Shown: positions 6,620-62,944 of the stretch, in pieces
How the letters are laid out: every line of letters starts with the position of its first letter
How positions within the stretch are numbered: the stretch's first letter is position 1
Source of the DNA: Octopus vulgaris
Taxonomy: Eukaryota
Reading direction: 5' to 3'
Assembly: GCA_951406725.2 (NCBI GenBank)
Contig: OX597816.1
Location: 21,018,001 to 21,082,000, forward strand
Length of the DNA stretch: 64,000 bases
Position numbers and translations under genes: made by a program
Notes under the pieces: model-generated
Told to the model about the DNA's origin: nothing
Database searches by the model: none
Seen by the model: only the letters and a program-made list of their open reading frames with translations

Positions 6620-7408
6620 GCCTATCTGTCTATCTACCTATATGTCTGCTTATCTGTCTGTTTATCTATCTGTCTGTCTGTGTGTCTGCCTACCTATCTT
6701 TCTTTTTATGAATCTGCTTGTTTTGGGTGGAATCATTCTAACAATTTGAAATATCTTTCAAAACAATTCCATGATTCAGAGGAATGTAACAGGGATGGTA
6801 AGTCAAACGACTTGTAAAGTGCCAACTTTGTGTTGTTATTAGTTTCACGCCAACCCACCAAATGCTTCAGGTACCCTTTGAATTAGCAGATGTATTTCTG
6901 TAACTAGATATTCATCATTTTGGCACAAAGCTTCAAAGAGTCTACAAACTCAAGTAGCTTACCATTAACGAAAATCTGAAGGGTGGTACAAACAGTACCA
7001 CATGCAAATTGATACGTTACAATTGCTTTTTCCCAAAATTAATGGGCCAGACAAATGCAGATACAAGAGACGGCAGGCCTGTTTCAGCGTCACTGACTAG
7101 ATCACAATGGTACGTACATACGTATATACATACATACATACATACATACATACATACATACATACATACATACATACATACATACGTGCGTACGTACATA
7201 TAAGCATGCATGCATACATGTTTGTTGCATTAAATTCAAGTTTTGCTTTTTTCTCTTTTTGCAGGAAGCGGTCATTCAGGTTCACTGACGAAACTTCAAA
7301 CGAGAGAACTCACATAGACATCCACTGACGTGGTGAGTGTTCATCAGCGGAGAGGGTGACTGTGGTGGCTATATATGGGAAGGGAGTGGTGGAGTAGCAG
7401 AGCTAACA

Positions 7409-7954
7409 ATGGAGTTTACTTATCGGGATTCTGGGGATAATCAGACTGGATGTCAAAAGCCGAAGGATCATGCAATAGAGGGAGAGGATGGAGATCATGA
7501 AAAAGTCGCTAATAATATCAGAGAAAGTAGTGACGAGAACGAGGAAGGGGATATTGGAACGGCTGCTACTAATATAAAAAAAACCGTTGATAATGTAGAG
7601 AAAGAAAATAGTAGTGTTGATGGAGAGGTTGGCTTTTCTAAACAGCTTGGTACTATTGGTATGGAATTGGTTTGTAGCGGAATAAGTGTGGTTGGTATAG
7701 GAGTGGGTGAGACCGTTGGTATAATAGGGCATTTGACTGCTTTTGGAGTGAAATTGGTTGGTAGTGGAGTGGTATTAGCTGGTAGAGGAGTGGGGGTAGT
7801 TGGTAGGGGAGTGGGATTTCTTGGTAGAGAAGTTGGATCACTTGGTAGAAGAATGGGATCAGCTGGTAGAGGAGTGCAATCCGTTGATGGTAGAGGCGTG
7901 GAATTAGATAGCGGAGTGAGTGGGGAGAAGGAGGTTTCTAGTGATAGAGAGTAA
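7409..7954 (+). CDS. Hypothetical 181-aa protein: acidic N-terminal part plus Gly/Val heptad repeats (short paralog of the 25218 protein)
   Basis: First in-frame ATG at 7409 (acaATGg) downstream of a strong acceptor. Repeats GMELVCS/GVKLVGS/GVVLAGR/GVGVVGR. DNA similarity to 24932-25230. Confidence 0.6.
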   Translation: MEFTYRDSGDNQTGCQKPKDHAIEGEDGDHEKVANNIRESSDENEEGDIGTAATNIKKTVDNVEKENSSVDGEVGFSKQLGTIGMELVCSGISVVGIGVGETVGIIGHLTAFGVKLVGSGVVLAGRGVGVVGRGVGFLGREVGSLGRRMGSAGRGVQSVDGRGVELDSGVSGEKEVSSDRE

Positions 7955-8042
7955 TTCGTTGACGGAGGAGTGAGAATGGAGTCAAGAGGGTTGATAATGA
8001 GCGTAAGAAATTAGTCGGAATTGGAGTGAGCAGCGTGAGAGA

Positions 8043-8663
8043 ATGTATTATAAATTAGCTACGATTGTTTACTTTATTCATGCAGTCATTGTTTCGGGGT
8101 ATTTCTTGCTTGTATCTAGGATATTTTGTTTTCATGACGTTAGAGTTTGTCGAGGCAACGTTCGTGGGTTATTGTCAGCAAAAAAGGGTCATGCATTGGT
8201 AGCGATGGTTTGTGGGGTGACATTGCTTGCCGATCGGATACAACAATTGCTTAATATTGGGCGGTGGGGGTTGATTCATATTGAGTTGTTACTTGCTTAT
8301 AACATAGTGCCATGGTTTTATTGTGAGGAGGGATGCGCGAGTAGTGTGAATGGTAATAATGAAGAAAAAGGGAGTTTCGAGAAGGGACGAAGAGGGTTTG
8401 CTGTTAGTGGACCTAAAGGATGTGCTGAAAATAGACAAAGATCGAGTGTGGATAGTGTGGATGAAGAGGTTATGATGAAGGATGAGAAATATAGGATGGA
8501 GGAAGGGAAAGTTACGATGGAGGAAAGGAAGTTAGGACAGAGGAAGAGAAAAGTACGACGGAATTTAGGTGGAGAAAGGCATTTTTTTGTTTTGAGGAAG
8601 AGAAAGATAAGATGGAGGAAAGAAGAAAGTCTGTCAAAACGGCCGAGACTTTCTACCAACTGA
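8043..8663 (+). CDS. Hypothetical 206-aa protein, hydrophobic N-half and Lys/Arg/Glu-rich C-half
   Basis: ATG-initiated, non-microsatellite ORF 88 nt after the 7409 ORF. No recognised domain. Confidence 0.3.
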   Translation: MYYKLATIVYFIHAVIVSGYFLLVSRIFCFHDVRVCRGNVRGLLSAKKGHALVAMVCGVTLLADRIQQLLNIGRWGLIHIELLLAYNIVPWFYCEEGCASSVNGNNEEKGSFEKGRRGFAVSGPKGCAENRQRSSVDSVDEEVMMKDEKYRMEEGKVTMEERKLGQRKRKVRRNLGGERHFFVLRKRKIRWRKEESLSKRPRLSTN

Positions 8664-9024
8664 AGATTCTTCTTGAAATCATTTTATACCAACTTCTTCG
8701 TCTCTTTGGATTGCCGCTATTCCTTCACCATGTGCATATTTTAATATTCTCATTGATTTTAATACGGACGTACAAACTCACAAGTACATTTATGTATTTA
8801 CAAATTTTTATATTATATCTTGTGTAAATGAATGCACCTATGTATGCCGTGGAGTATTCCGACGCTTTGAAATATATTGAATGTATATGAACACTGATTT
8901 TTGAAATTTGTTCTCTCTTTCTTGGCTTTATATTCCTGATGCTCTGTTAGAACGCTAATTAGCTGTGATGTAAAAGGGAATAATTATCTCATTTATTTCT
9001 TCATTATATACATATATATATATG

Positions 9025-9127
<103 letters not shown>

Positions 9128-9430
9128 AGACATAGATACGTGTAGACAGACAAGCAAGAGTGAAAAACCAGCATGTGAGAATTTTTGTGCTTATGGTCAT
9201 TCCCTGCCAGCGCTGACAACTGCTGATAACGTGTTTTCATCCCTCTAAATTAGCAGTTCAGCAAAAGGGAACAACAATAGTAATTGTACAAATCAGTCCC
9301 TGAAATTATTCTATGTCTGTCGCTTATTTTATTGGTCAATTTTGTGAAACTACTAAGTTAAAAGGATGTAAACACACCAATACCAGCTGTGATGGGAGGC
9401 AACCATATACGCAAAAACACTCATACACTG

Positions 9431-9471
<41 letters not shown>

Positions 9472-10034
9472 ACTTTCATTCCTTCGCTCTCTCTCCTTCC
9501 CCTCCATCATTGTCTCTCTCAGTCCGGCCGCAGTCTAATACCTGAAACTAATACATACATATGTGTGTATATAGGTATGCATATATGGGTACAGGACTTC
9601 TAAATACGCAAACAACATGAAATACGAAAATAACTTTGGGACGCATAGATCGAGAGAAACAAATGGAAAACAAGACACGCAACATAAAAAACAATGACCC
9701 TTCATCAGTTGTCCATCTATTCCTTATTCAGAGTAATGAACGACAAGATAAGACTTTGAGGCAGTCGCTCCCGCGAACCAAAATAAAATTTGGGTTGAGC
9801 AAACAATTATAAACAGGAAGGGCCGTCAGACTCAGGTGAGTTAAGGTAGCGACCCCTGGAAGAAGATTCTTTGATAAGAGAGAAGATAGGAGAGGAGCGA
9901 GATAGGAATGCGTCTACACTGCACAACGGATAGACGGAATATGTATACATATACATACACACACATACACACACACAAATATGTATATATGTATATATAT
10001 ATATATATATATATACATACATACTCACACAAAA

Positions 10035-10094
<60 letters not shown>

Positions 10095-10098
10095 ATAA

Positions 10099-11898
10099 AA
10101 CGGTAAGATAACAAAAACCAAGAACTTATACCTGGTAGATAACAGCAAATACACACAACTCTTACACAACAGCATCATTAATAATTATACTAAGGCTAGG
10201 GCACAGACATATAACGAAATTAATAAAGAAGCTAGCGTCATCGCTGCTAAACTTAAATTAGATAAAAAAATAGAAACCCTCCCCCAAAAAGAGGCCTTTA
10301 TTACTATTAAAGACCACAAAGAAAACTTCCTTTCCAATCCTAAATGTAGGCTTATCAACCCAGCCAAGTCAGAACTAGGGATTATTAGCAAAGAAATTTT
10401 AGATAAAATAAATACGAAAATTAAGACCGATACTAGGCTAGTGCAATGGTCCAATAGTATAGAAGTCGTAGACTGGTTTAAAGCTATTAAGAATAAGAAA
10501 AAAGCGAGGTTTACACAATTCGATATTGTTGGTTTTTATGCCTCTATCTCTAAAGAACTTCTAGATAAAGCCCTAATCTTCGCTAGTGATTTCATAGAAA
10601 TTAGTACCAATGATAAGGATATAATCTTCCATGCTAGAAAGACATTACTTTTCAGTGAGAATGCAAAGTGGGTAAAAAACACCGACACGGAGGGCGCTTT
10701 CGATGTGAGCATGGGTTCATATGATGGGGCAGGCATCTGTGATCTAATTGGACTCTTTCTCCTAGATACCTTCAGTAAGACATTCCCTAACGTACATTTT
10801 GCCATCTACAAAGATGATGCCCTCGCCTTAACAGCTAATACAAATGGACCAGCACAAGATCGTTTTAGGAAGGATATTATCCAGTTAATGAAACACTTCG
10901 GACTTAGTATAACTATAGACACTAACCTGACGGTTGTCAATTTCTTAGACGTTTCCTTAGATCTTAATAATAATATTTATAAGCCTTATAGGAAGCCCAA
11001 TGATAGACTAAGTTATATTAATGTAGGTTCATGCCATCCCCCTATAGTATTCAAAAATTTAGTTAAAAATATTAGTAAGAGGATTTCTAGCCTCTCATCT
11101 AATGAGGACATCTTCAATAGCGTTGCCCCAGTTTATAATAAAGCTTTAAAAGATAGTGGTTTTAGCGAAAAAATAAAATATACACCTATCACCAGCCCAA
11201 CAATAAGGAAAAGGAATAATAGAAATAGGAAGGTCATCTGGTTTACGCCCCCTTACTCACCCGAGGTGGCCTTCAATATAGGTAAATATTTCCTAGCACT
11301 GATAGATAGACATTTTCCAGTTAACCATGCTTATAGGAAACTCTTCAATAGACACAATTTAAAAATTAGTTTTAGTTCAACTACCAATTTTAAAAACATA
11401 ATCAATCATAACATACAAAAAACACAAGAAGAAAACAGCTGTTCATGCAGGAATAAAGAATTGTGCCCGCTAAATGGAGCTTGCATGTCCAAGACCATCA
11501 TATATGAAGCTACCGTAAACTCTATAACCACTAAAGACACCGTTTCGACGAAGAAATACGTGGGCCTGACAGAGGGTAATTTCAAGGCCAGGTTCAATAA
11601 CCACACTTTGAGCTTTAGGCACTGGAACAAAAGAAAAGCGACACAATTATCCAATCATATTTGGTCTTTAAGAGATAAAGGTGTCGATTATAACATACAA
11701 TGGAAGATTTTGGCCAGATGTAAGCCTTATACTAACGGCAGCGGAAGGTGCGGTTTATGCGACATGGAGAGATGGCTTATCTGGAAAAGCAGCTTAGACC
11801 CTACCACATGTCTAAATACAAGGACAGAGCTTTTCGGATCATGCCCACATGTGACTAAATTTCTGTTACGTTTTTGGTCCCCTAAAGAAAACGGATAG
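10099..11898 (+). mobile_element. Penelope-like retroelement (Naiad-type), 5'-truncated open frame with RT + GIY-YIG endonuclease
   Basis: Frame open from ~10099. RT motifs KDHKENF..PKCRLINPAKSELG, FDIVGFYASI, MGSYDGA, YKDD, NFLDV. Cys motif CSCRNKELCPLNGAC, then IIYEAT...YVGLTEGNFKARFNNH, CGLC and LN.RTE. Confidence 0.92.
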
Positions 11899-12092
11899 AA
11901 CATGCTTTCTGTGTTATGTCCCAAGAAGATTTTATATATTTTTATATATTTTTATATATTTTTATGTATTTTTATATAATTTTTATGACGAAAAATGCGA
12001 GCGATGTATAAGTACGCAGGCAAAGCAGAGTTATAAAAGAGTAATTTCCCTTCATTTTTAACGGTATTTTTTCATAACGTTTTCAAATAGCC

Positions 12093-12155
12093 AGATAACC
12101 GAAGAGATGGTGTTGTGGATTTCCACTTCGGCATCTGAAACTCAGAGTTTTATCT
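12093..12155 (+). ncRNA. Hammerhead ribozyme-like motif in the 3' region of the Naiad-type PLE
   Basis: AGAUAA-CCGAAGA-GAUG...CAUC(u)-GAAA-CUCAGAG-UU-UUAUCU: 6-bp stem I, near-palindromic stem III, one extra U before GAAA. Confidence 0.6.
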
Positions 12156-12175
12156 TGACTACCGAGTAATGTAAC

Positions 12176-12251
<76 letters not shown>

Positions 12252-12344
12252 CGTTGTGACGAGAGTTCGAGTGTTTCCTATGGGTATGATGGTCAAATCC
12301 TTGGTAGATTAGGAAGCAAATAGTTCTACATCTAATCAATGAAG

Positions 12345-12625
12345 CCTTAAAATTACAGTATCTACTAATTTCTCTATAGTTGACTATTTACATGCTTCCC
12401 TATATCTGAACGTCTCGAGTAAACTTTCCATAAATCTAATGAGAAACTCGCCAAAATACATAATCAGTCTTGTCACCCTGCGGCAATATTTAAATACCTG
12501 ACAGCTAATATTAGTAACAGAGTGTACGATCTCTCTTTCTCTAAAACATTTTCGAGATATCAGCCCCCTACTATAACAATGCTCTAGCCAAAAGGGTCTC
12601 CAAAGATAAAATTAATATATCATCC
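12345..12625 (+). mobile_element. Degenerate second Naiad-type PLE fragment (RT thumb region)
   Basis: LKITVSTNFSIVDYL, SCHPAAIFKYLTANISNRV and APYYNNAL align with the 10441 ORF (LSITIDTNLTVVNFL, SCHPPIVFKNLVKNISKRI, APVYNKAL). Confidence 0.7.
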
Positions 12626-12632
12626 CTGTAAT

Positions 12633-12764
<132 letters not shown>

Positions 12765-12774
12765 TTTTTTAAAT

Positions 12775-14160
12775 AAAAAATGAATATTATAGACGAGTTA
12801 GATCAATACTAAAAACAGAGCTCAATGCTAAAAACAAGATAATAGGTATCAACACTTTACCTGTCCCAGTTATAAGTTACAGCTACAATATCCTTAACTG
12901 GACACGAAATGAACTGTCCAAAATAGATAGGAAAACAAGAAAAATACTGACAGGATCTAGGATGCATCACCCAAATCTGACATAGAAAGACTATATATAC
13001 AACGTATAGAAGGTGGTAGAGGCCTTATACAGCTGGAAAACTACTATAAAATAACCACCATAGGACTGCAAAAATACCTACTTCGGAAGGAAGGAAAACT
13101 GATCCAGATAGCAGCAAAACACGATCAAAAAAAAAACTGTTCTCAGTATTTAAGGAAGCTGACAAATACAAACAAGAAATCATACCACCTAATAAACACG
13201 AAGAAGAAGAAGGAGATGATGAAGAAACAACAAAAGCTATAAAACAAATGAAATCCAAACTAAAAGTAGAACAGCAACGAACCATGATAAAACGATGGCA
13301 AGAAAAGCCCCTTCATGATAAATACTGCACTAAACTAAACGCAAAAGAAATAGACAAAGAAAAATCCCAGCAATGGTTGAGAAGCTCAGGACTCAAAGCA
13401 GAAACAGAGGGATTTTTAATTGCAGCACAAGACCAAAGCCTCCCCACCAGAAATTACCAAAAACATGTAATGAAAAGAAATATTACAAGTAAATGCAGAA
13501 TATGTGGAGATGGACAAGAAACAATAAATCATATTATCTCTAGCTGCCCAGTCCTGGCTAAGAAGGAATATATTCACAGACATGACAGAGTTGGAACCTA
13601 CATACACTGGAAGCTATGCCAACATTATGGAATAACAACAGAAAAAAGATGGTATAGGCACACACCAGAAAAGGTCACAGAAAACGAGAAAGCAACCATA
13701 CTCTGGGATATGCCGATACACACAGATAGAGAAATTAAGGCCAACAGACCAGATATAGTTGTCAGAGATCATGAAGAAAAAAATGCTTTCTAATTGATGT
13801 ATCAATACCGGCAGATGACAACGTGTCTCTAAAAGAAATGGAGAAACTCTCAAAATACAAAGACCTGGAAATAGAGGTAACTAGAATGTGGAATCTGAAA
13901 ACAGAAACAATTCCTATCATAGTAGGTGCATTAGACATGATAAAAAAATATTCAGATAAATACATAACAAAAACACCAGGACTTACAAACACATATAACA
14001 TACAGAAAATTGCACTACTAGGCACTGCACACATCCTACGCAGAACACTTTCCATACAATAACCATCAGAGCATCACAACAAATCACAGCACATACCCAA
14101 GGCACACAGAGCTGCGCTCGGTAGTGAAGTGAAAGCACGCTATAAAAAATAAAACTACTG
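12775..14160 (+). mobile_element. R4/Dong-clade non-LTR retrotransposon family 1, 5'-truncated with intact 3' end, in (TAA)n
   Basis: GGRGL, AAQDQ, zinc knuckle CRICGDGQETINHIISSC, RHD, restriction-like endonuclease RPDIV..LIDVSIP..EKLSKY. Frameshifted. TAA tracts on both sides. Confidence 0.9.
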
Positions 14161-14859
14161 AATAATAATAATAGTAATAATAATAATAATAATCCGCACT
14201 GAATTACAACATTAACGTACTAAACCGGGCTCCCCATTGAAAAACAAATCCAATACAATAACATCGATGGAATTAGATAAAGAAATCTGAGGAAGACTTG
14301 AAGGAAGCGGCCTTTTAACGAAAATACCAAAAAAAAAACTTTTACTGCCATACAAAGCAGTTTCTCCTTCGCATGGTATCTGAATGAGATATGTGCGTAA
14401 CACACACTCGATATCGACACCGGAAAGTTTACAAATTATAAACAGAACAAAATAGTAAGTACATAAATTGAGTAATTACGCATACACTCGAATGTCTACA
14501 CAATCATATATACATGTTGATACCCATAGGACTACAGATACAATCCAATGTATACACAACTACGTGAAATTTACAGGACACACACCCACGCACATCAAAG
14601 CACATGTCACAATAGAAACAAAAACAAAATCAAAACTTCCTTTTACTTTTTTTTCTTATTTAATTTTCATTTTTTCGAACTAACACATACAGAGTGAACC
14701 ATTTATAAGTGTTTAAAATAAGTTTTAAAAATAACTCACAAATAAAACTATGTTCGGAGATAAATCTTTCACTAAAATAAAACATCACAGATGAATACAG
14801 ATTGCTAGCCTTAAGAAGCTACGCTACGAGTGATGTTTACATGTAGAAAACACGGAAGC

Positions 14860-16640
14860 AGTGTTGTCGCTAAAAATTAACCCTAAACTGACAGATCCAT
14901 ATCCTAATGTAAGCGTCGAAGCTCGTCATACCTCAATGTTAAGAAAACAAATTACAAACCGCAATGGTCATCGATCGGATCAAAAACGACCACATACTCG
15001 AATGTTGAACCAGATTCGCGTTGGAAAATCAGCTCCTGGTTCAAATCTTCCCGACACACTGGAGCTGGACGTACCCCACAACTGGAATATTCCAACAGAT
15101 GGCCATCCATGCTCGTCATCAAATAACCAAAAGAAAAAGAATGAAATATGGTCTATGTAAGATGATAAAGAAGTTCTTACGGCCTTCTACCATGCCATAT
15201 ATTTCCCCACAGATAAATCTAATACTGTACAAACCTACTTAAACTGGAGACAGAAACACCCTGAAGTAAGACACTACATAGACAGTAGCAAACTTGCCAA
15301 TGTCAGAAGAAACATTATGAAAAAAAATTACTGACTGAAGTAGAGATTGACAAAATTAAACAAGCAGTAAAGGATAAAAAGAACGAAGCTGCAGCTAAAG
15401 AAGATAATAGACAGGAAATAATTATAGACCAGCCCAGGGCTGATAAAAACGCAGTAATGATTGAAAGAGTTAATGTAATTGATAGGCAAAGTGAAATACT
15501 CCCTGAACCAATCATAAACACGAAGACAGAAGAAAATCAAATAGATGAAGAAAGTCACACAAATATTGACCCAACAGAACTACATGAGCTAAAAACTCAA
15601 ATCATGATTGAATGGCTGAAAATGAAAGAAACCAGTATGGATGAACGCGATACTCTCCCAAAAACCCGCAATTCTAACCAAAGCCTGAAAATAATTGGTA
15701 AAATCCGCCTTGAACTTAAGGATGTAATTTCAGCTAATGATGTTGATATCACTGATCGCAACCATCCGCGAAAATTTCAACGATTCTATGCGGTAAAAAG
15801 TTTAGAAAACGGCAACATTCCCACAAAAAGCCTTCTTGGCAAGAGCGTATCCAACACCTAATTATGCTACTTAGGTCTGACATTGAATGTTTGAAAGACC
15901 TTAAGTTTGACAAGACTACCAAACCTACAAAAATCCGAAAATTAAAGCAAAAATATAACATGAAAACCATACTTGACATTGATGCCACCATAGAAACCAT
16001 CCTGCAAAAGGTATGTGCTAAAGTTGCCCGCATAGTGAGGTATGAAAAGCGTGTTAGATTCTTCAAGGACAACAACGTGTTCAAACATAACCCCAAAGAA
16101 TTTTACAGGAAGCTAGGGAAAACACCAGTTACTGCAAAGTCTGTACCATCAAAAGTTGTGCAGGGATTTTAGAATAAAATTTGGACAGAAGAATAAACAA
16201 ACAACGAAAAGGTTCCTTGGATTGATAGAATATCTACAGACTTGGACTCCACAGAGGAGCAAAAGTGGGAGGGTGTCACGGTAGAAGATATAAGATCTGA
16301 TCTCAGGAGGTCAAGCAAATGGAAATCTCCAGGAAAAGATAAAATTCCTAACTTCTGGTTGATTGCCTTCCCAGAGAGTCATGAACTGCTAACAGAACAT
16401 CTGTCCTGACTGAATATACCTATAGTTTTTATTAGCAGCATATTCACTAATGAACAAAAAGGATATAAACGTGGATCCTATGGTTGTAAAGATCAGCTAC
16501 TTATCAATAAGATGGTCTTAGAACATTGTCACAAACGACAGAAAAACTTGTCAATTGCCTTGATAGGCTATAAAAAAGCTTTTGATAGCCTACCACAGCT
16601 GGATTAAGAAATGCCTTGAAATGTATAAAATAGCGCCTAC
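14860..16640 (+). mobile_element. R4/Dong-clade LINE, degenerate N-terminal and RT fragment (different family)
   Basis: WRQKHP..IDSSKLANVRRNI, RYEKR...NNVFKHNPKEFYR, WKSPGKDKIPNFWL, EQKG..RGSYGCKDQLLINK, YKKAFDS, with stops and deletions. Confidence 0.8.
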
Positions 16641-24050: not shown

Positions 24051-24790
24051 GCTGAGTAAAAACTAAGCAACGTTTTGAAACATGTAATTCATCACAATAT
24101 ATTTCAACAATGCGGAAATTTTATTCATCAAATTAAGTACCATTGCAATCAACACATTTTTGCCAACGAATCACAAGTTTGAATATTCCGATAATATAAA
24201 AATCTGGTGTCCTGGAGCTGATGAAATCTTTGAAGGTACTCTCAGCATCGGTTTGAATTTCGAACTCCTTCTCTCGCAGGAACCCTTGAAGTTACTTGAA
24301 AAAGTGGTAGTCGGTAGGAGAGAGGTCTAGGGAATAATCTGAGTGAGGAAGAACTTTGTAGTCAAGTTCCCTCAACTTCTGGAGCGTCATTAGTGAAACA
24401 TGTGGTCTAGTGTTGTCATGTAGAATGATTGGCCCTCTTCTGTTGACCAGTCTTGAACGGGGGAGTAAAAGTGTTTCGTTTATTTTGGCAATTTCGAGGC
24501 AATATGTTTTTGCAGTAATGGTTTTTCCGATTTTTAAGAAGTTATAGTGAATGAGTCCAGCAGTCCACCACCGAACAGTCACCATAACCTTCTTTTTGAA
24601 GAGCCACGGTTTAGGGAAGGTTTTCGATATTTCATTTTGGTCCAACCACTGCGAAAAATGATTTTTATTATTGTACAGTATCCACTTGTGATCGCAAGTA
24701 ACAATAATGTTCTGGTAATATGAATCGATCTGCTTACGGAAAAGAACCGAAGAGTAAATTTCATATCTGTTCAATTTCTGATTTTCATAC
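24048..24790 (-). mobile_element. Mariner (Tc1/mariner) transposon remnant, transposase catalytic domain and one terminus
   Basis: IVTCDHKWILYNN, KKVMVTV.W, LHDNTRPH and HSDYSLDLSPTDYHFF (YSPDL.P.D motif). TIR-like caggctgagtaaaaa abuts a (TA)n tract. Confidence 0.92.
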
Positions 24791-24825
<35 letters not shown>

Positions 24826-25217
24826 TGTATGTATATATGTATGTATGTATGTACAACTATATCTGGTCTAGAGACACAAGTATTGATTTGAGGCATTTAC
24901 TTTACTTTTCGCTTGTTAATCTTCCTTACAGGTAAAAGTCATTGACGTTCAAAGAAAACCTTAAATAAGAATAATCAATTGGACAGCCGCTGATGTGGAG
25001 AGTGTTGTTTGAGTAGTGGAGTAAGAGTGAGTGGTCATTAGTGGAAAGGGGCGTGGTGGTGGTGATGATATATGAGGAAGGATTGGTGGCGTAGTGTTAT
25101 TATCGGCGACGGTATGGGCATAATCAAGACGTTGTCGACGGTATAGGATAGGGTTCTTGAAAGGGCTGCTAGCAATATAAAAAAAAGGAGTACGGGTGAT
25201 AGTGAAAAATAGTGTAG

Positions 25218-27470
25218 ATGGGAGTCTTTGGATGGTTTCGTAATGCCATGGGATGGGTTAGTAGCGGATTGAAAAGTGCGGCTAAAGGAGTGGGAGGGAT
25301 TCTTAGTGGTGCAGGGGAATTGGTTGGTAGTGGAATGGAATGGCTTGGTAATGGAATAGAAGATGTCGGCAGTGGAGCGGAATTCGTTGGTAGTACAGTG
25401 GAATCACTTGGTACTGGAGTGGAGTCAGTGGCTAGTGGCACGAATAATGCTGTGAATAAAGTGAAATCTAAACTAAAACAGGCTGGTAGCGGAGTCGTGA
25501 AGGTTGCTTGTTGTGGTGCAAAATTAGTTAGAAGTCAAGTAGAAACAGTTGGGACTAAAGTGCGATTAGCTGGTGGCGTGGTGAAATCAGCTGGAGGATT
25601 GTTAGGATTAGTTGGTAAAGGATTAGCATTATTTGGCGGAGGAGTCAAAAGGGTTTCTAGTGGTGTATCGGATTTGGTTAGTGGTAAAGTGGGATTAGTT
25701 GATAGTGGAAAGGCATTCATTGGTAGTGCGGTGGAATCAGTCAGCAGTGCAGCAAAATATATTTGGAATGAAAGGGAAAAATTTGTGAATGGCGTCACAA
25801 GTGTTGTTAGTGGTGTTAGGGAACTGGTTGCTAAAGAAAGGGAATCACTTGTGAAGAAAGTGGAATCAGTTGGTGCATGTTTGCAATTAGTTGGGACAGG
25901 AGCGCAACATATTGGCACAGCATTGAAGGGATTCAAAAAGATTATTAATAAGGCAACAGAATGGGTTGGTATTAAAGAAAATATAGTGGGAAAGGGATTC
26001 GAATTCTTGGGTAAAGGAATGGAGTTTATTGGAAATGGAATGGAATTAGCTGGAAAAGGAGTGGAATCGGTTGGTAACGGAGTGGAATCAGTTGGTAAAG
26101 GAGTGCGGATTGTTGTGGATGTAGTCAAGCAGGCTTTTACTCCTGGAGTTGCATCAACTTTTAATGGGATGAAATCAGTTGTCAGCGGTGTGGGATTAGT
26201 TGGAAAGGGAATGACATCCATTAAACAAGGAGTGGGAAATATTGTGAATAGTGTCAAGAGGTTTGCTGGTCATGAAGAAAAATTAGTTGGCAATGAAGTG
26301 GAAACAGTTGGTGATGAAAATGAGACAGTTGATAGTAAAAAGGAACTGGTTTTTAGAGGGTTAGAACAATTACTTAACGGAGCCTCAAACATTGTGAATG
26401 GAGTGGAAAAGTGTTCTAAAGAAGGAAAGGAATTACTTGCTAGTGAAGTGAAAACAGCTGCTAGTGCATTGAAGACACTAGGTACAGGAGCAAATTTAGT
26501 TAGTAGTACTATTGGAGAAGTCGGTGGTGGGTTGCAAGAAGTTGGTCGCGGAGTGAGAAAAGTTGAGGATGGAATCAAGATGGATGCTAATGGTGGAAAG
26601 AAGAGGGTTGGTTGCAAAGAGGAAACACATGGGAGTAAAGTGGAAAATTTAGGTAGTAAAATGAAATTTGTTGGTGATGGGGTGGGAGAAAATGTTGGCG
26701 GAGTGAAAACAGTTTCGAATGGAATGGAAAAGTGTTCTAAAGAAGGAAAGGAATTACTTGCTAGTGAAGTGAAAACAGCTGATAGTGCATTGAAAACACT
26801 TGGTACAGGAGCAAATTTAGTTAGTAGTACTATTGGAGAAGTCGGTGGCGGGTTGCAAGAAGTTGGTAGCGGAGTGAGAAAAGTTGAAGATGGAATCAAG
26901 ATGGATGCTAATGGTGGAAAGAAGAGGGTTGGTTGCAAAGCGGAAACATTTGGGAATAAAGTGGAAAATTTAGGTAGTAGAATGAAATTAGTTGGTGACG
27001 GGGTGGGAGTAATTTGTGGCGGAGTGAACACAGTTGCGAATGGAATGGAAAGGTTTTCTAAAGAAGGAAAGGAAATACTTGCTGGTGAAGTGGAAACAGC
27101 TGCTAGTGCATTGAAAACACTTGGTAGAGGAGCAAATTTAGTTGGTAGTACCATTGGAGAATTCGGTGGTGGGTTGCAAGAAGTTGGTAGCGGAGTGAGT
27201 AAAGTTGAGGATGGAATCATGATGGACGCTAATGGTGGAGAGGAGGGGGTTGATTCCAAAGCGGAAACATTTGGGAGTAAAGTGGAAAATTTTGGTAGTG
27301 GAATGAAATTAGCTGGTAATGGGGTGGGAGTAATTGGTAGCGGAGTGACAAAAATTGCGAATGGAATGGAAAGGATTTCTAAAGAATTAAATGAATTACT
27401 TGGTAGAGAAGTGAATACCGCCGCTACAGATGGAGATGAATTTGCTGTTATTGGGGCGGAGGTAGTTTGA
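25218..27470 (+). CDS. Hypothetical 750-aa Gly/Val/Ser/Lys/Glu-rich heptad-repeat protein with three 107-aa units
   Basis: Uninterrupted 2.25-kb ORF with no TE motifs. G-x-E-x-V-G-S heptads throughout, amphipathic N-terminus MGVFGWFRNAMGWVSSGLKSAAKG, acceptor and conserved module upstream. Stop may be premature (GGA in the duplicate). Confidence 0.7.
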   Translation: MGVFGWFRNAMGWVSSGLKSAAKGVGGILSGAGELVGSGMEWLGNGIEDVGSGAEFVGSTVESLGTGVESVASGTNNAVNKVKSKLKQAGSGVVKVACCGAKLVRSQVETVGTKVRLAGGVVKSAGGLLGLVGKGLALFGGGVKRVSSGVSDLVSGKVGLVDSGKAFIGSAVESVSSAAKYIWNEREKFVNGVTSVVSGVRELVAKERESLVKKVESVGACLQLVGTGAQHIGTALKGFKKIINKATEWVGIKENIVGKGFEFLGKGMEFIGNGMELAGKGVESVGNGVESVGKGVRIVVDVVKQAFTPGVASTFNGMKSVVSGVGLVGKGMTSIKQGVGNIVNSVKRFAGHEEKLVGNEVETVGDENETVDSKKELVFRGLEQLLNGASNIVNGVEKCSKEGKELLASEVKTAASALKTLGTGANLVSSTIGEVGGGLQEVGRGVRKVEDGIKMDANGGKKRVGCKEETHGSKVENLGSKMKFVGDGVGENVGGVKTVSNGMEKCSKEGKELLASEVKTADSALKTLGTGANLVSSTIGEVGGGLQEVGSGVRKVEDGIKMDANGGKKRVGCKAETFGNKVENLGSRMKLVGDGVGVICGGVNTVANGMERFSKEGKEILAGEVETAASALKTLGRGANLVGSTIGEFGGGLQEVGSGVSKVEDGIMMDANGGEEGVDSKAETFGSKVENFGSGMKLAGNGVGVIGSGVTKIANGMERISKELNELLGREVNTAATDGDEFAVIGAEVV
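26403..27365 (+). repeat. Three in-frame 321-bp (107-aa) tandem units
   Basis: Unit starts at 26403, 26724, 27045; next boundary 27366. Confidence 0.95.
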
Positions 27471-28900
27471 GCGGAATTATTTTGTAGTGAAGGGGCAAAA
27501 ATTAGTAGTGAACTTGTAGGGGTTGATAATTGTGTGGAAATAATTGTTTGCGCTGCCAGAGAAATTTCGAATGGAATTGAGATGCCTACTAGTGGTAGAA
27601 AGGAATTAATTGATAATGAATTAGCTGGCAATGTACCAAAATCCGTTTCTAGAGGAGTCGAATTAGTTATTAATGGTGCGGAACTAGTCTGTAGTGGAGT
27701 CAGAAAATTTGCGAATGGAATTGAAATGGTCGCAAACGGTGGAGAGGAATTAGTTGCTAGTGGATTGGCATTAGTTGGCAGCGGATTGGAACAAGTCGGT
27801 ACGGGAGTCAGAACAGTTACAAGTGGAATAGAAATGGTCTCTAATCTTGGAGAGGGATTGTTTGGCAGAGAAAAAGAAGTAATTGAACGTGGCGTGGAAT
27901 TAGTTGGTAAAGGAGTGAAAGTGGTTACAATGGGATTAGCTCGTGGTGGGGTAAAGCTATATGTTAGAAAACGTAGCGGGTCGTTGGTAGCGAATGGAAT
28001 TGAAACGTATGGTACTAGCGAAGAGGAATTAGTTGGTATTGGGTGTTGAACAATTGGTAGCGGTGTCAGAAGAAATGCAAAATGAATTGATATGGTTGCA
28101 AGGTGTTGTGAAAAATTAAGTGGTAGTAAAATTGGATTAATTGAAAATGGAGTGGAATAAGTTTCTGGACGGAATTAGTTGGTAGTGAAGTAGAATTGTT
28201 AGTGCAGTGGAATTAGTTGGTAGTGGGGTGGAGTTAGTTGGAAGTAGGGTGGAGTTAGTTGCTAGTGGGATGGAGCTAGTTGGTAATGGGGTGGCACTAG
28301 TTGGTAGTGGGGTGAATTTAGTTGGTAGTGGGGTGGCACTAGTTGGTAGTGGGGTGGCACTAGTTGGAAGTAGGGTGGTGTTAGTTGGTAGTGGGGTGGA
28401 GCTAGTTGATAGTGGGGTGGAGCTTGTTAGTATTGGGTTGGAGATAGATGGTAGTGGGGTGGAGCTAGTTAATAGTGGGGTGGAACTAGTTGGTATTGGG
28501 GTGGAGTTAGTTGCTAGTGGGGTGGAGCTAGTTAGTAGTGGGGTGGAGCTAGTTGGTAGTGGGGTAGCACTAGTTGGTAGTGGGGTGGAGTTAGTTGCTA
28601 GTGGGGTGGAGTTAGTTGCTTGTGGTGCTAGTTGGTAGCGAAGAAAAATTTGTTGGTTGTTGAGTGGAATTAGTTGGTACAGTTAGGTTTAGTTGGTAGT
28701 GGAAAGTAATTTGGACTGGAATTAGTCGGTAGTGGAGTTGGATTAGTTGGTAGTAGGGTACGATTTGTTGGTAATGAAGTGGTTTTAGTAACATGTGGGG
28801 TGTACTAGTTAGCAGCGAAGTCGGAATATTTGCGAATGTAATGGAGAGGGTTGCTTGTTGCCGAGAGAAGTTAGTTTGTAGTGCAGTGGAATTAGCTTGT
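27471..28900 (+). pseudogene. Interrupted continuation of the heptad protein, including a 21-bp (GVELVGS)n array at ~28205-28630
   Basis: Same frame stays open past the TGA to 28049. Unit ggggtggagttagttggtagt repeated about 20 times, with stops and indels between blocks. Confidence 0.7.

Positions 28901-32607: not shown

Positions 32608-32643
<36 letters not shown>
32252..32643. repeat. (AAT/AAC)n tract switching to (ATT)n; junction of a segmental duplication
   Basis: Direct reading; runs straight into attgcgaatgg of the duplicated repeat gene. Confidence 0.95.
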
Positions 32644-35600
32644 GCGAATGGAATGGAAAAGTGTTCTAAAGAAGGAAAGGAATTACTTGCTAGTGAAGTG
32701 AAAACAGCTGCTAGTGCATTGAGAACACTAGGTAGAGGAACAAATTTAGTTAGTAGTACTATTGGAGAATTAGGTGGTGGGTTGCAAGATGTTGGTAGCG
32801 GAGTGAGAAAAGTTGAGGATGGAATCAAGATGGATGCTAATGGTGGAAAGAAGAGGGTTGGTGGCAAAGAGGAAACACTTGGGAGTAAAGTGGAAAATTT
32901 AGGTAGTAAAATGAAATTTGTTGGTGATGGGGTGGGAGTGGGAGAAATTGTGGGGAGTGAACACAGTTGCGAATGGAATGGAAAGGTTTTCTAAAGAAGG
33001 AAAGGAATTACTTGCTAGTGAAGTGAAAACAGCTGCTAGTGCATTGAGAACACTAGGTAGAGGAACAAATTTAGTTAGTAGTACTATTGGAGAAGTCGGT
33101 GGTGGGTTGCAAGAAGGTGGTCGCGGAGTGAGAAAAGTTGAGGATGGAATCAAGATGGATGCTAATGGTGGAGAGGAGAGGGTTGGTTGCAAAGAGGAAA
33201 CACTTGGGAGTAAAGTGGAAAATTTAGGTAGTAAAATGAAATTTCTTGGTGATAGGGTGGGAGTAATTGGTGGCGGAGTGAATACAGTTGCGAATGGAAT
33301 GGAAAGGTTTTCTAAAGAAGGAAAGGAATTACTTGCTAGTGAAGTGAAAACAGCTGCTAGTGCATTGAGAACACTAGGTAGAGGAACAAATTTAGTTAGT
33401 AGTACTATTGGAGAATTAGGTGGTGGGTTGCAAGATGTTGGTAGCGGAGTGAGAAAAGTTGAGGATGGAATCAAGATGGATGCTAATGGTGGAAAGAAGA
33501 GGGTTGGTGGCAAAGAGGAAACACTTGGGAGTAAAGTGGAAAATTTAGGTAGTAAAATGAAATTTGTTGGTGATGGGGTGGGAGTAATTGGTGGCGGAGT
33601 GAACACAGTTGCGAATGGAATGGAAAAGTTTTCTAAAGAAGGATAGGAATTACTTGCTAGTGAAGTGAAAACAGCTGCTAGTGCATTGAGAACACTTGGT
33701 AGAGGAACAAATTTAGCTGGTAGTACCATGGGAGAATTCGGTGGTGGGTTGCAAGAAGGTGGTCACGGAGTGAGAAAAGTTGAGGATGGAATCAAGATGG
33801 ATGCTAATGGTGGAAAGAAGAGGGTTGGTTGCAAAGAGGAAACACTTGTGAGTAAAGTGGAAAATTTAGGTAGTAAAATGAAATTTGTTGGTGATGGGGT
33901 GGGAGTAATTGGTGGCGGAGTGAACACAGTTGCGAATGGAATGGAAAAGTTTTCTAAAGAAGGAAAGGAATTACTTGCTAGTGAAGTGAAAACAGCTGCT
34001 AGTGCATTGAGAACACTTGGTAGAGGAACAAATTTAGCTGGTAGTACCATGGGAGAATTCGGTTGTGGGTTGCAAGAAGGTGGTCGCGGAGTGAGAAAAG
34101 TTTAGGATGGAATCAAGATGGATGCTAATGGTGGAGAGGAGAGGGTTGGTTGCAAAGAGGAAACACTTGGGAGTAAAGTGGAAAATTTAGGTAGTAAAAT
34201 GAAATTTCTTGGTGATAGGGTGGGAGTAATTGGTGGCGGAGTGAATACAGTTGCGAATGGAATGGAAAGGTTTTCTAAAGAAGGAAAGGAATTACTTGCT
34301 AGTGAAGTGAAAACAGCTGCTAGTGCATTGAGAACACTTGGTAGAGGAACAAATTTAGCTGGTAGTACCATGGGAGAATTCGGTGGTGGGTTGCAAGAAG
34401 GTGGTCGCAGAGTGAGAAAAGTTGAGGATGGAATCAAGATGGATGCTAATGGTGGAAAGAAGAGGGTTGGTTGCAAAGAGGAAACACTTGGGAGTAAAGT
34501 GGAAAATTTAGGTAGTAAAATGAAATTTGTTGGTGATGGGGTGGGAGAAATTGTTGGCGGAGTGAACACAGTTGCGAATGAAATGGAAAAGTTTTCTAAA
34601 GAAGGAAAGGAATTACTTGCTAGTGAAGTGAAAACAGCTGCTAGTGCATTGAGAACACTAGGTAGAGGAACAAATTTAGCTGGTAGTACCATGGTCAGAA
34701 TTCGGTGGTGGGTTGCAAGAAGGTGGTCGCAGAGTGAGAAAAGTTGAGGATGGAATCAAGATGGATGCTAATGGTGGAAAGAAGAGGGTTGGTTGCAAAG
34801 AGGAAACACTTGGGAGTAAAGTGGAAAATTTAGGTAGTAAAATGAAATTTGTTGGTGATGGGGTGGGAGAAATTGTTGGCGGAGTGAACACAGTTGCGAA
34901 TGAAATGGAAAAGTTTTCTAAAGAAGGAAAGGAATTACTTGCTAGTGAAGTGAAAACAGCTGCTAGTGCATTGAGAACACTTGGTAGAGGAACAAATTTA
35001 GCTGGTAGTACCATGGTCAGAATTCGGTGGTGGGTTGCAAGAAGGTGGTCGCGGAGTGAGAAAAGTTTAGGATGGAATCAAGATGGATGCTAATGGTGGA
35101 GAGGAGAGGGTTGGTTGCAAAGAGGAAACACTTGGGAGTAAAGTGGAAAATTTAGGTAGTAAAATGAAATTTCTTGGTGATAGGGTGGGAGTAATTGGTG
35201 GCGGAGTGAACACAGTTGCGAATGGAATGGAAAAGTTTTCTAAAGAAGGAAAGGAATTACTTGCTAGTGAAGTGAAAACAGCTGCTAGTGCATTGAAAAC
35301 ACTAGGTAGAGGAACAAATTTAGTTGGTAGTACCATTGGAGAATTCGGTGGTGCGTTGCAAGCAGTTGGTCGCGGAGTGAGAAAAGTTGAAGATGGAATC
35401 AAGATGGATGCTAATGGTGGAGGGGAGAGAGTTGGTTGCAAAGCGAAAACATTTTGGAGTATAGCGGAAAATTTTGGTAGTGGAATGAAATTAGCTGGTA
35501 ATGGGGTGGGAGTAATTGGTAGCGGAGTGACAAAAATTGCGAATGGAATGGAAAGGATTTCTAAAGAATAAAATGAATTAGTTGGTAGAGAAGTGAATAC

Positions 35601-37560
35601 CGCCGCTACAGGTGGTGATGAATTTGCTGTTATTGGGGCGGAGGTAGTTGGAGCGGAATTATTTTGTAGTGAAGGGGCAAAATTTAGTGGTGAGCTGGTA
35701 GGGGTTGATAATTGTGTGGAAATAATTATTTGCGCTGCCAGAGAAGTTGCGAATGGAATTGAGATGCTTACTTGTGGTAGAAAGGAATTAATTGATAGTG
35801 AATTAGCTGGCAATGTACCAAAATCCGTTTCTAGAGGAGTCGAATTAGTTATTAATGGTGCAAATCTAGTCTGTAGTGGAGTCAGAAAATTTGCGATTGG
35901 AATTGAAATTGTCGCAAACGGTGGAGAGGAATTAGTTGCTAGTGGATTGGCATTAGTTGGCAGCGGATTGGAACAAGTCGGTACGGGAGTCAGAACAGTT
36001 ACAAGTGGAATAGAAATGGTCTCTAATCTTGGAGAGGGATTGGTTGGCAGAGAAAAAGAAGTAATTGAATGTGGCGTGGAATTAGTTGGTAAAGGAGTGG
36101 AATTAGTTGGTAAAGGAGTGAAAGTGGTTACAATGGTATTTGTTCATGGTGGGGTAAAGCTATGTTAGAAAAAGTAGCGGGTCGTTGGTAGCGAAAGTTG
36201 CGAACGTAATTGAGATCGTTGTAAAGAGCAATTAGTTTATAGTGGGTGGAGTGGAATTAGTTGGTAGAGGTGTCAGAAGAGTGGCAAATGTAATCTAGAT
36301 GGTTTCTAATGGTGTAGAGGAATTAATAGATAATGAAGAGGAGTTAGTTGATAGTGGAGTGGGATTAGTTTGTAGCGGAGTCAAAAATTTTGCAAATGGA
36401 ATCGAGTGGGTAGGATCTATTTAGTACCGAGGCCAGGAAACTTGTAAATGGAATCGAGAGGATTGCTAATGTTGGAGAGGAATTGGTTGGTAGAGGGGTG
36501 GAATTAGCTGGTGGTGGGGTGGAAGTGGTAGGGAGTGGGGTGGGAAGTTAGCGGAGTCAGAAATGTTGTGAACGGAATCGGAAGGATTGTTAGTGTTAGA
36601 GAGGAATTAGCTGGTAGTGAATGGGAATTAGTGGGTAATGCAGCAGAATTATTTGGTAGTGGGGTAGAATGAGTTGATAGTGGAGTGGAATGAGTTGGTA
36701 GCGAAGGGAATTGAAACGTATGGTACTAGCGGAGAGGAATTAGTTGGTATTGGGTGTTGAACAATTGGTAGCGGTGTCAGAAGAAATGCAAAAGGAATTG
36801 ATATGGTTGCAAGGTGTTGTGAAAAATTAAGTGGTACTAAAGTGGAATTAATTGAAAATGGGGTGGAATAAGTTTCTGGACGGAATTAGTTGGTAGTGAA
36901 GTAGAATTGTTAGTGCAGTGGAATTAGTTGGTTGTTGGGTGGAGTTAGTTGGAAGTAGGGTGGAGTTAGTTGCTAGTGGGATGGAGCTAGTTGGTAGTGG
37001 GGTGGCACAAGTTGGTAATGCGGTGGCACTAGTTGGTAGTAGGGTAAAGTTAGTTGGTAGTGGGGTGGAGCTAGTTGATAGTGGGGTGGCACTAGTTGGT
37101 AGTGGGGTGGCACTAGTTGGAAGTAGGGTGGAGTTAGTTGGTAGTAGGGTGGAGCTAGTTGATAGTGGGGTTGAGCTTGTTAGTATTGGAGTGGAGATAG
37201 ATGGTAGTGGGCTGGAGCTAGTTAATAGTGGTATGGAGCTAGTTGGTAGTAAGGTGGCACTAGTCATTAGTGGGATGGAGTTAGTTGCTAGTGGGGTGGA
37301 GCTAGTTAGTAGTGGGGTGGAGCTAGTTGATAGTGTGGTAGCACTAGTTGGTAGTGGGGTGGAGTTAGTTGCTAGTGGGGTGGAGTTAGTTACTTGTGGT
37401 GTTGAGCTAGTTGGTAGCGAAGAAAAATTTGTTGGTTGTGGGGTGGAATTAGTTGGTACAGTTAGGTTTAGTTGGTAGTGGAAATAATTTGGACTGGAAT
37501 TAGTCGGTAGTTGAGTGGGATTAGTTGGTAGTAGGGTTCGATTTGTTGGTAATGAAGTGG
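32644..37560 (+). pseudogene. 5'-less duplicate of the heptad-repeat gene with nine 321-bp units, stops and frameshifts
   Basis: Unit starts 32653, 32978, 33299, 33620, 33941, 34262, 34583, 34905, 35227. Stops at 33644, 34103, 35068, 35569; +4 and +1 indels. Downstream part colinear with 27366-28790. Confidence 0.85.
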
Positions 37561-62462: not shown

Positions 62463-62769
62463 AATTGTCTTAACTGGTAAATCACAACTGTCTTAACTAG
62501 TACATCACAATTGTCTTAACTGGTACATCACAATTGTCTTAACTGGTACATCACAATTGTTTTAACTGGCACATCACACGTATTGAAAAGAGCATTGTCG
62601 ATGTGAGAACTATTACTACCCATGTATTTTAATTTAACTTTAAAAAAAATGAACGAACTAGTGAGTTTAGTTTAATAGCCTACCAATGTATACTATGAAT
62701 TTCTTAGACCTAGCAGTCGGGAAGACACTCGGCAAGAAATGGAAGCAAGTTTGAAAGAAGAAAAAAAAG

Positions 62770-62770
<1 letters not shown>
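62463..62770 (+). mobile_element. Extreme 3' end of a Dong family-2-like LINE, headed by a 23-bp x5 array, between TAA tracts
   Basis: Last unit reads IVLTGTSHVLKRALSM*, homologous to the Dong C-terminus. Units at 62463, 62486, 62509, 62532, 62555. Confidence 0.8.
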
Positions 62771-62850
<80 letters not shown>

Positions 62851-62875
62851 TAGTAATAGTAATAATAAGGATAAT

Positions 62876-62941
<66 letters not shown>

Positions 62942-62944
<3 letters not shown>

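Follow-up and report, generated by a model that had tools for sequence, protein, structure and literature searches.

What protein, if any, does a long run of glycine- and valine-rich heptads specify in the octopus, and from which strand is it read? The question arises from a window of 64,000 nucleotides of Octopus vulgaris DNA (contig OX597816.1, 21,018,001 to 21,082,000; positions below are those of this window unless another coordinate system is named). A preliminary description had pointed to an open reading frame (ORF) of 750 amino acids (aa) on the + strand, and the frame is indeed there, from 25218 to 27470, beginning MGVFGWF and devoid of a transposon domain. We find that it belongs to a real and undescribed octopus sequence family, as judged from the DNA, and that the family probably codes for protein on the + strand. 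As to function, our tentative preference, held with more doubt than belief, is for a giant amphipathic helix that folds conditionally, coats lipid and packs side by side.

The 750-aa frame is one of six. Across 222 kb of the contig (C3) we found three tandem units of ~ 60 kb, with shared blocks 92–98% alike, each of which holds one short and one long gene. The short genes, 181 aa from the ATG, lie on the + strand at C3:20962088, 21025409 and 21087481 (units 1, 2 and 3). Long gene copy 1 (C3:20987111) is open for 438 aa to a TGA and then for 379 aa ending in acidic 43-aa repeats; copy 2 (C3:21043218) is the 750-aa frame; copy 3 (C3:21103704) is open for 1001 aa and, after a one-base gap near its end, for 357 further codons. 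The window itself contains one short and one long gene, and the two further copies of each lie outside it. Three queries and one pattern, which give lower bounds, found no family members elsewhere in the 2.8-Gb genome. Short and long genes appear from their sequences to be old paralogues, because all six start with a polypyrimidine tract ending in CAG (+ strand, acceptor-like) and an alignable leader. This candidate splice site lies at 24900–24931 (+) ahead of long gene copy 2 and at 7240–7264 (+) ahead of the short gene. The leader of the long gene (24932–25217, + strand, ~ 285 nt, 4 upstream ATGs) aligns to the short-gene leader and to the first part of the short coding region without being open itself. 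An upstream exon common to short and long genes was sought and none was found, the matches being repeats.

The long gene copy 2 product contains 18.8% Gly, 14.0% Val, 9.5% Lys and 8.9% Glu; Pro and Tyr occur once each (Pro 0.1%, Tyr 0.1%, His 0.4%, Met 2.3%, Trp 0.7%). Parsing by nucleotide likeness to the repeat consensus gave 115 heptads, a tally that omits the heptad holding a + stop and any segment-initial heptad. Gly stands at position a in 63 and at f in 48, Ser at g in 32, and Leu, Phe or Trp at d in 46; the consensus has Gly at a, hydrophobic residues at b and e, Glu/Lys at c, often Leu/Ser at d, Gly/Ser/Ala at f and Ser/Asn/Arg/Lys at g. Unbroken runs reach 8–9 heptads. The heptad build proposed earlier holds as a loose consensus, but its strict form (G-hydrophobic-E/K-x-hydrophobic-G-S) occurs only 2 times in the 750 aa, and GVELVGS, which had been given as the repeat word, occurs 0 times in the ORF. 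Likewise, organization into 107-aa units applies to residues ~ 395–750, where 3.2 copies of a 321-bp unit (107 aa, 15 heptads plus 2 single inserts) occupy 26387–27426 (+), but not to the first 390 residues. Residues 1–350 (25218–26267, +) consist of diverged heptads with a net charge of + 17, a moment of 0.39 and one hydrophobic stripe of period 3.57. They open with a Trp/Phe-rich amphipathic segment (25218–25274, +), whose residues 2–19 (mean hydrophobicity 0.62, moment 0.47, net + 2) are the most hydrophobic and most aromatic amphipathic stretch of the protein. No 19-residue window exceeds a Kyte–Doolittle (KD) mean of 1.44, so that by this measure the protein has no membrane span and, as first supposed, no obvious signal peptide; the highest such means are 1.44, 1.50 and 1.32 in the long proteins and 1.77 in the short protein.

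To decide on the coding strand, the antisense frames have to be considered. On the − strand, shadow frames of TNSTPLP-type repeats, Pro/Thr/Ser-rich and mucin-like, are open for 121, 244 and 634 aa within 25169–28174, and for 800 aa in copy 3; we judged them non-coding. The ratio of non-synonymous to synonymous divergence (dN/dS) is unable to separate the strands because the + and − frames share wobble positions, and a comparison of codon positions 1 and 2 did not separate them either. We therefore counted stops. Over 298 codons, copy 1 has 103 and copy 3 has 45 base changes of its own, from which 7.3 new + stops were expected and 0 observed, and 0 of 2000 simulations had none; new − stops appeared at the neutral rate (2 seen, 2.1 expected). 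The − frame is interrupted in 6 of 6 copies, by 1, 1 and 2 stops in the long N-terminal halves and by 3, 5 and 4 in the short genes. A G-to-T change in the first base of the codon at heptad position c creates a stop on the + strand but merely Ser-to-Tyr on the − strand; it was found in 1 of 115 cases, and G-to-T at b, e and f in 41 of 345 (p = 1e-4). Chemical coherence per heptad position, measured against a neutral model, was high on the + strand (z = + 2.3) and low on the − strand (z = − 1.5). In the short genes, third-position changes silent on the − strand only occurred at 0, 2 and 1 of ~ 30 sites, and those silent on the + strand only at 2, 2 and 0 of ~ 13. A side observation concerns four unrelated database proteins (P0012, P0020, P0026 and P0027) with pure GVELV-, GIDLV- or GVETL-type heptads: their antisense would read Pro/Thr/Ser, and some of them may be antisense mis-annotations.

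The + frame has a strong helical periodicity. Its hydrophobic moment exceeded that of 100 shuffles by z = 18–19 at 100–103°, and the best period was 3.56–3.59 in 10 of 10 segments and 107/30 in the unit. Heptad runs were re-phased by + 1 residue 17–20 times and by − 1 residue 0–3 times, depending on which of three gap penalties was used, with two + 4-equivalent shifts. The resulting stripe remains in phase across 350 residues, with an amplitude (0.178) reached by 0 of 500 random-phase controls. The 107 residues of the unit divide into 50 + 57, and lags of 43, 50 and 57 rank high. On the helical wheel, Val, Leu, Ala and Ile form a narrow core, Gly makes up 29–40% of both flanks, and charges with Ser/Asn occupy the back. 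According to the coiled-coil literature (PMC4786415), 1-residue insertions are tolerated and insertions of 2 or 6 break the helix; on that account, the excess of + 1 inserts is what selection for a helix would leave. By sequence, the helix register is conserved while the residues turn over fast.

Short and long genes evolve differently. For the short genes, dN/dS was 0.35 and 0.39 in two of the three pairs (Fisher p ~ 0.01) and 0.70 in the third, consistent with purifying selection in those two pairs. The long coding DNA diverges 2–3 times faster than its flanks (8.7% versus 3.2–4.0%; 15.7% versus 4.9–7.4%). In the comparison of copies 2 and 3, divergence at non-synonymous sites is 2.8 times that of the flanks (p = 2e-12), synonymous sites are raised as well (p = 0.05), and substitutions fall as 36, 39 and 28 on the three codon positions. 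Indels in the N-terminal part measure 12 and 21 bases (copies 2/3) and 9, 3 and 42 bases plus one of 1 base (copies 1/2, DNA alignment). Either diversifying selection or conversion between copies can produce such fast divergence.

The locus also contains a natural control. A duplicate of the array had been placed at 32644; it is present (32642–37551, +), with 9.2 units at 32642–35608 followed by a tail, but it is a headless and broken copy of the long-gene 3′ half, apparently a pseudogene fragment. It begins at an AAT/ATT microsatellite and lacks the entire N-terminal half. In 963 unit codons it has accumulated 3 stops and 4 gaps that are not multiples of three, versus 0 stops and 1 gap in 1069 codons of attached units; the headless duplicate, on this evidence, does decay, unlike the attached units. 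Downstream of the 750-aa frame, which ends at a TGA where the other copies encode Gly, a decayed continuation of the heptad array (27471–28900, +) comprises a 192-aa open piece, three more stops, a frameshift and then a 21-bp minisatellite. It is this minisatellite (28196–28625), past four stops and the frameshift, that translates as GVELVGS, and most occurrences of the literal GVELV (10) fall in a frameshifted fragment of 149 aa (28189–28635), also past the four stops.

Searches support the earlier view that the family is unrecognized. Residues 1–380 gave 0 matches among 8000 scored candidates of 412–1313 aa. Using phmmer, 381 aa compared with 1.84 billion representatives gave 34 matches at E up to 0.001 and 0 at 1e-10; the 14 of these that were examined are either unnamed or unrelated proteins made of pure heptad repeats, from bacteria, algae, snails and flukes. 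The short protein had 2 matches among 1151 candidates, both of them O. vulgaris models of this cluster, and an antisense 244-aa piece had 0 among 2939 proteins of 428–2000 aa, which is weak evidence. Two sets of exact-sequence look-ups returned 0 of 4 and 2 of 4. No Pfam match (0 of 5) or NCBIfam match (0 of 6) was above cut-off. Foldseek returned 0 PDB matches at E 0.001 with a low-confidence model as query (predicted local distance difference test, pLDDT, 39), a PDB sequence search gave none under E 0.001 (best E 0.004, designed helices), and the ESM Atlas contains the 750-aa sequence without a feature match or a named structural match. In the protein searches, no annotated orthologue from another octopus came up, only O. 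vulgaris models; this may reflect missing annotation, lack of expression or the limits of the searches. The literature outside subscription papers, queried also by motif and accession, yielded nothing on the heptad family.

Sequencing runs of three organisms contain DNA 90–99% like the cluster. Of 182 differences, 40 were listed, with 33 coding rows; leaving out 3 in a compensated gap pair, the remaining 30 were classified as 4 silent, 26 replacements and 0 stops. No RNA run is listed among the 21 runs that contain family sequence. The following results were not counted as evidence. In run X1, which we guess to be RNA, contigs cover the intron end, the 3′ flank and the frame with no joint; the repeat-to-gene depth ratio was 112 in X1 versus 7,700–15,400 in X2–X4; and two runs of the X1 study contain next to none of the cluster words. 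Tissue-limited RNA might be the cause, but contig depth is unable to show it. A 951-nt contig of X1 is copy 2-like upstream, densely different at 25741–25861 and aligns there to copy 1; such a mosaic of copies 1 and 2 possibly reflects gene conversion or a further paralogue type.

How does the predicted protein compare with known systems? The preliminary description had likened it to YhgE/Pip proteins and to perilipin-4, which stands as analogy but fails as membership. In the TIGR03057 repeat (xxxLxxG) of YhgE/Pip, as in the octopus heptads, Gly recurs every seven residues and a hydrophobic residue stands three positions ahead of it, yet only 1 of 6 proteins matched it (16.7 bits versus a cut-off of 18.6), and the 750-aa protein did not. 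The octopus repeat has Val rather than Leu and a second Gly flank. YhgE/Pip proteins have membrane-spanning segments around the repeat region, and KD windows detected none in the octopus proteins. Reflectins are rich in Met, Tyr, Arg and Trp with MD(X)5MD motifs, and suckerins are secreted proteins of Gly/Tyr/Leu and His/Ala/Thr/Val modules bounded by Pro. The composition given above agrees with neither, no MD(X)5MD motif occurs in the translation and no window is signal-like, so the earlier statement that the family is not of these kinds was correct. With almost no Tyr, His or Pro and a helical heptad design, it also differs from the beak proteins, and no sequence likeness to any of the three was found. 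It nonetheless fits a cephalopod pattern, in that orphan low-complexity genes in tight tandem clusters are described for reflectins, suckerins and histidine-rich beak proteins (PMC9068888); the same paper reports that suckerins were not found in O. bimaculoides. With skip-residue coiled coils such as the myosin rod and chemoreceptor hairpins, the family shares heptad runs with single inserts, weak profile and fold look-alikes and, by the insertion rule of PMC4786415, a canonical heptad pattern with helix-compatible discontinuities. Unlike them, it has a Val/Met/Ala core, Gly on both flanks, 19% Gly, skips about every 50 residues and no significant match.

A further likeness is to perilipin-4, perilipin-3, synucleins and apolipoproteins, which like the octopus proteins are very long, repetitive, weakly hydrophobic and amphipathic; the likeness extends to being Gly/Val-rich, Pro-free and without signal peptide. 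Synucleins have an acidic tail, and octopus copy 1 likewise continues into one. The octopus protein has a hydrophobic fraction of 0.37, an aromatic fraction of 0.036, a charged fraction of 0.23 and a moment of 0.37. According to PMC5889406, the corresponding values are 0.37, 0.01, 0.23 and 0.35 for the perilipin-3 helix and 0.35, 0.002, 0.15 and 0.257 for perilipin-4. On these figures, the octopus protein is nearer perilipin-3 in bulk and more aromatic and charged than perilipin-4, while having the long, weakly hydrophobic, Gly/Val-rich and aromatic-poor amphipathic character of the perilipin-4 type. The same paper describes perilipin-4 as Gly/Val-rich, unfolded in solution and binding better with length, and PMC8064757 suggests its multimeric assembly. 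The perilipin repeat type itself, given in PMC5889406 as an 11-mer/33-mer of 3.67 residues per turn without indels, was tried and rejected; the amplitude was 0.056 at 3.667 and 0.178 at 3.568. No perilipin family, whether PAT domain or four-helix bundle, was among the Pfam matches up to E 1, and unlike perilipins the octopus genes form a fast-evolving tandem cluster.

Taken as analogy, the likeness to perilipin-3 and perilipin-4 lends support to a lipid-coat mechanism, which would work as follows. Single-coding-exon orphan frames on the + strand, kept open by selection, would presumably be transcribed and translated into a cytosolic product (no signal or membrane span) that is mostly unfolded in water. 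Its Trp/Phe-rich N-terminal segment would dock and anchor the chain on lipid, where the chain would fold on the surface into amphipathic helices of ~ 50 residues joined at the skips, and the helices would likely pack sideways, using Gly at a and f together with Leu/Phe at d, to form a coat. Binding through many weak contacts would permit lengths from 438 to 1001 aa and a dispensable C-terminal end; tolerance of such lengths would be explained by the length-dependent binding described for perilipin-4. We give less credence to a bolder version, in which a 21-bp minisatellite gave rise to a giant helix of 400–1300 residues, the skips tuning it to 3.57 residues per turn, the Gly flanks building a lattice on membranes or droplets and diversifying selection acting on the family as it does on gamete or defence proteins; this is doubtful. 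A heptad design with a 3.57 period and double Gly flanks is not known to have been described for lipid-surface proteins.

Several results weigh against the coding frame, the lipid-coating helix or both. Third-position changes in the long genes are silent only on the − strand in 4, 7 and 5 cases versus only on the + strand in 2, 1 and 1. At heptad depth, − stops are rare (1 in 115 heptads versus 0.117 per heptad under an unconditioned neutral model), for which the scarcity of Tyr, His and Gln on the + strand can account. The leaders carry 3–4 upstream ATGs, the context of the start codon is weak, no contig from four runs (unstranded contigs) shows a joint at the acceptor-like site, and in the assembly all three long copies are broken downstream, by TGA at codons 439 and 751 and by a one-base gap at about codon 985. 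Long-copy dN/dS was 1.55 for copies 2/3 (p = 0.09 versus dS) and 1.14–1.20 in the pairs with copy 1, which take in a badly aligned tail (subsequent tests were confined to the first 320 columns), and in none of the 3 pairs were replacements more conservative than random ones (z = − 1.5 to + 1.0). A dN/dS near 1 among orthologues had been named in advance as speaking against the family, and the long paralogues do lie at ~ 1 or above; because the frame is kept open against expectation, we do not read this as neutrality. As to the helix, Lys and Arg lie at the back (median 120–141°) and not at the interface, and the + 1 inserts may descend from a few ancestral 50/57-residue units, in which case the p-value is inflated. 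The 3.57 period differs from the 3.67 of perilipins, synucleins and apolipoproteins, the value used by known extended surface helices (PMC6164224). A pure heptad run of 50 residues turns the stripe by 140–180° on a straight helix, a geometry more in keeping with a supercoiled bundle than with a flat surface. Finally, the AlphaFold models are of low confidence, the N-terminal part being predicted all-helical (pLDDT 38.8) and the 107-aa unit mostly coil (pLDDT 41.2); a homodimer prediction for one unit scored 0.01 and is no evidence either way.

Because the stripe turns so far and known extended surface helices use 3.67, a supercoiled lipid-free bundle is nearly as likely as a coat. Such structural helices, which we regard as possible but still doubtful, would close-pack as coiled-coil bundles, sheets or fibres, with skips relaxing the twist as in myosin rods and chemoreceptor hairpins. 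They agree with the unbroken runs of 8–9 heptads, with small residues flanking a two-position core, with Leu/Phe/Trp at d as a second packing face (46 of 115), with the all-helical N-terminal prediction and with weak look-alikes that include chemoreceptor hairpins (Pfam MCPsignal, 21 bits, cut-off 34.6); in addition, a period of 3.57 departs from the 3.63 of a straight helix in the left-handed direction. Gly and Val favour helix poorly, however, and 19% Gly and 14% Val with few Leu/Ala imply low helix propensity in water; moreover, the 107-aa unit is modelled mostly as coil, every fold match was non-significant, and fast, non-conservative residue change is unusual for a load-bearing fibre. A reading in which the long copies have become pseudogenes or untranslated RNAs of a minisatellite-born gene, with at most the short gene still translated, is unlikely. 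The broken 3′ halves, the one headless duplicate, the even spread of substitutions over codon positions, the several upstream ATGs and the lack of an annotated orthologue in another octopus all fit decay, but the first 300 codons of every copy are free of stops, N-terminal indels are multiples of three bar one, and coding DNA outpaces its flanks, which drift alone does not give.

That outpacing, with its non-synonymous excess, together with tandem triplication and the net charge and moment of residues 1–350, would also fit membrane-disrupting or fusogenic effectors that serve in defence, in contact between gametes or in glands that secrete through cell rupture, with the cationic N-terminal helices active and diversifying selection at work. 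Among the structural neighbours in the Atlas, none of which reaches the naming bar, are helices of secretion systems and of phage ejection, and the N-terminus may resemble Gly/Leu-rich amphibian antimicrobial helices. We nevertheless consider effectors rather improbable, in view of the absence of a signal peptide, membrane span or Pfam family match; in addition, conversion can explain part of the divergence, because dN does not differ significantly from dS and synonymous sites are raised too. Least probable is a true gene on the − strand, a mucin-like Pro/Thr/Ser protein of which the Gly/Val frame is the shadow. The TNSTPLP repeats do offer N-S-T sequons, the short copies a hydrophobic C-terminal tail, the − frames are long (634 and 800 aa), and both the third-position test in the long genes and the few − stops at heptad depth lean that way. 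Stops at the neutral rate in all six copies are nevertheless not what selection for a frame leaves; Ser-to-Phe/Leu is common and Ser-to-Tyr absent just where a + stop would arise, coherence favours the + strand, public models are on that strand, and 23 Phe occupy one 'mucin' position. On balance, stop avoidance, strand, divergence and periodicity tests and the lack of homologues support the initial proposal of lineage-restricted, fast-evolving, + strand-encoded long amphipathic helices.

The short gene of the window (copy 2, 7409–7954, +) has its ATG where a short paralogue had been noted; its 181 aa comprise an acidic N-terminal half and ~ 12 Gly/Val heptads, and the gene is apparently under purifying selection. 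Public model CAI9719048.1 starts at this ATG. Both this model and CAI9719053.1 begin at short-gene ATGs and depart after 87 residues for unrelated downstream pieces (7409–7670 and downstream in the window), so that the heptad half is missing from them, and proteomics searched against these models would miss that half. A 218-aa ORF downstream (8007–8663) is probably untranslated, because it carries stops in the unit 1 and 3 copies.

A scan of 52 further long ORFs of the region assigned 16 to transposon families and left 36 without a match. Transposon remains in the window include a 599-aa ORF at 10099–11898 with a weak GIY-YIG match, which we take to be Penelope-like, a zf-RVT piece at 13050–13793, a mariner-type transposase piece at 24292–24867, 350 bp upstream of long gene copy 2, and a reverse transcriptase at 62714–64000. 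An ending of three acidic repeats of 129 bp (43 aa) is peculiar to copy 1 (L031:7016–7406), and a high-copy repeat breaks into the 3′ region of this copy at about L031:7745–8030. C26 carries two copies, 6.3 kb apart, of a further 21-bp minisatellite (from 32567100 and 32573400; L029/L030). It stays open over hundreds of codons on either strand (EVELKPS heptads on the + strand, DGFNSTS on the − strand), and its unit is partly common to the repeat of the GVELVGS-type family. The C26 matches were rejected as family members; they are a different minisatellite, matched through a stop-ridden frame.

If the genes are not expressed, the locus is an ordinary decaying repeat cluster. If they are, it would represent an independent animal route to very long amphipathic helices, whose period and Gly pattern set them apart from the 11-mer helices of perilipins, synucleins and apolipoproteins. 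It would then be a tractable case of a minisatellite turned protein family, in which frame and register are conserved and residues are not, and its product a simple candidate for a biomaterial or emulsifier. For cephalopods, an expressed family would join reflectins, suckerins and beak proteins as the fourth kind of orphan protein encoded in clusters.

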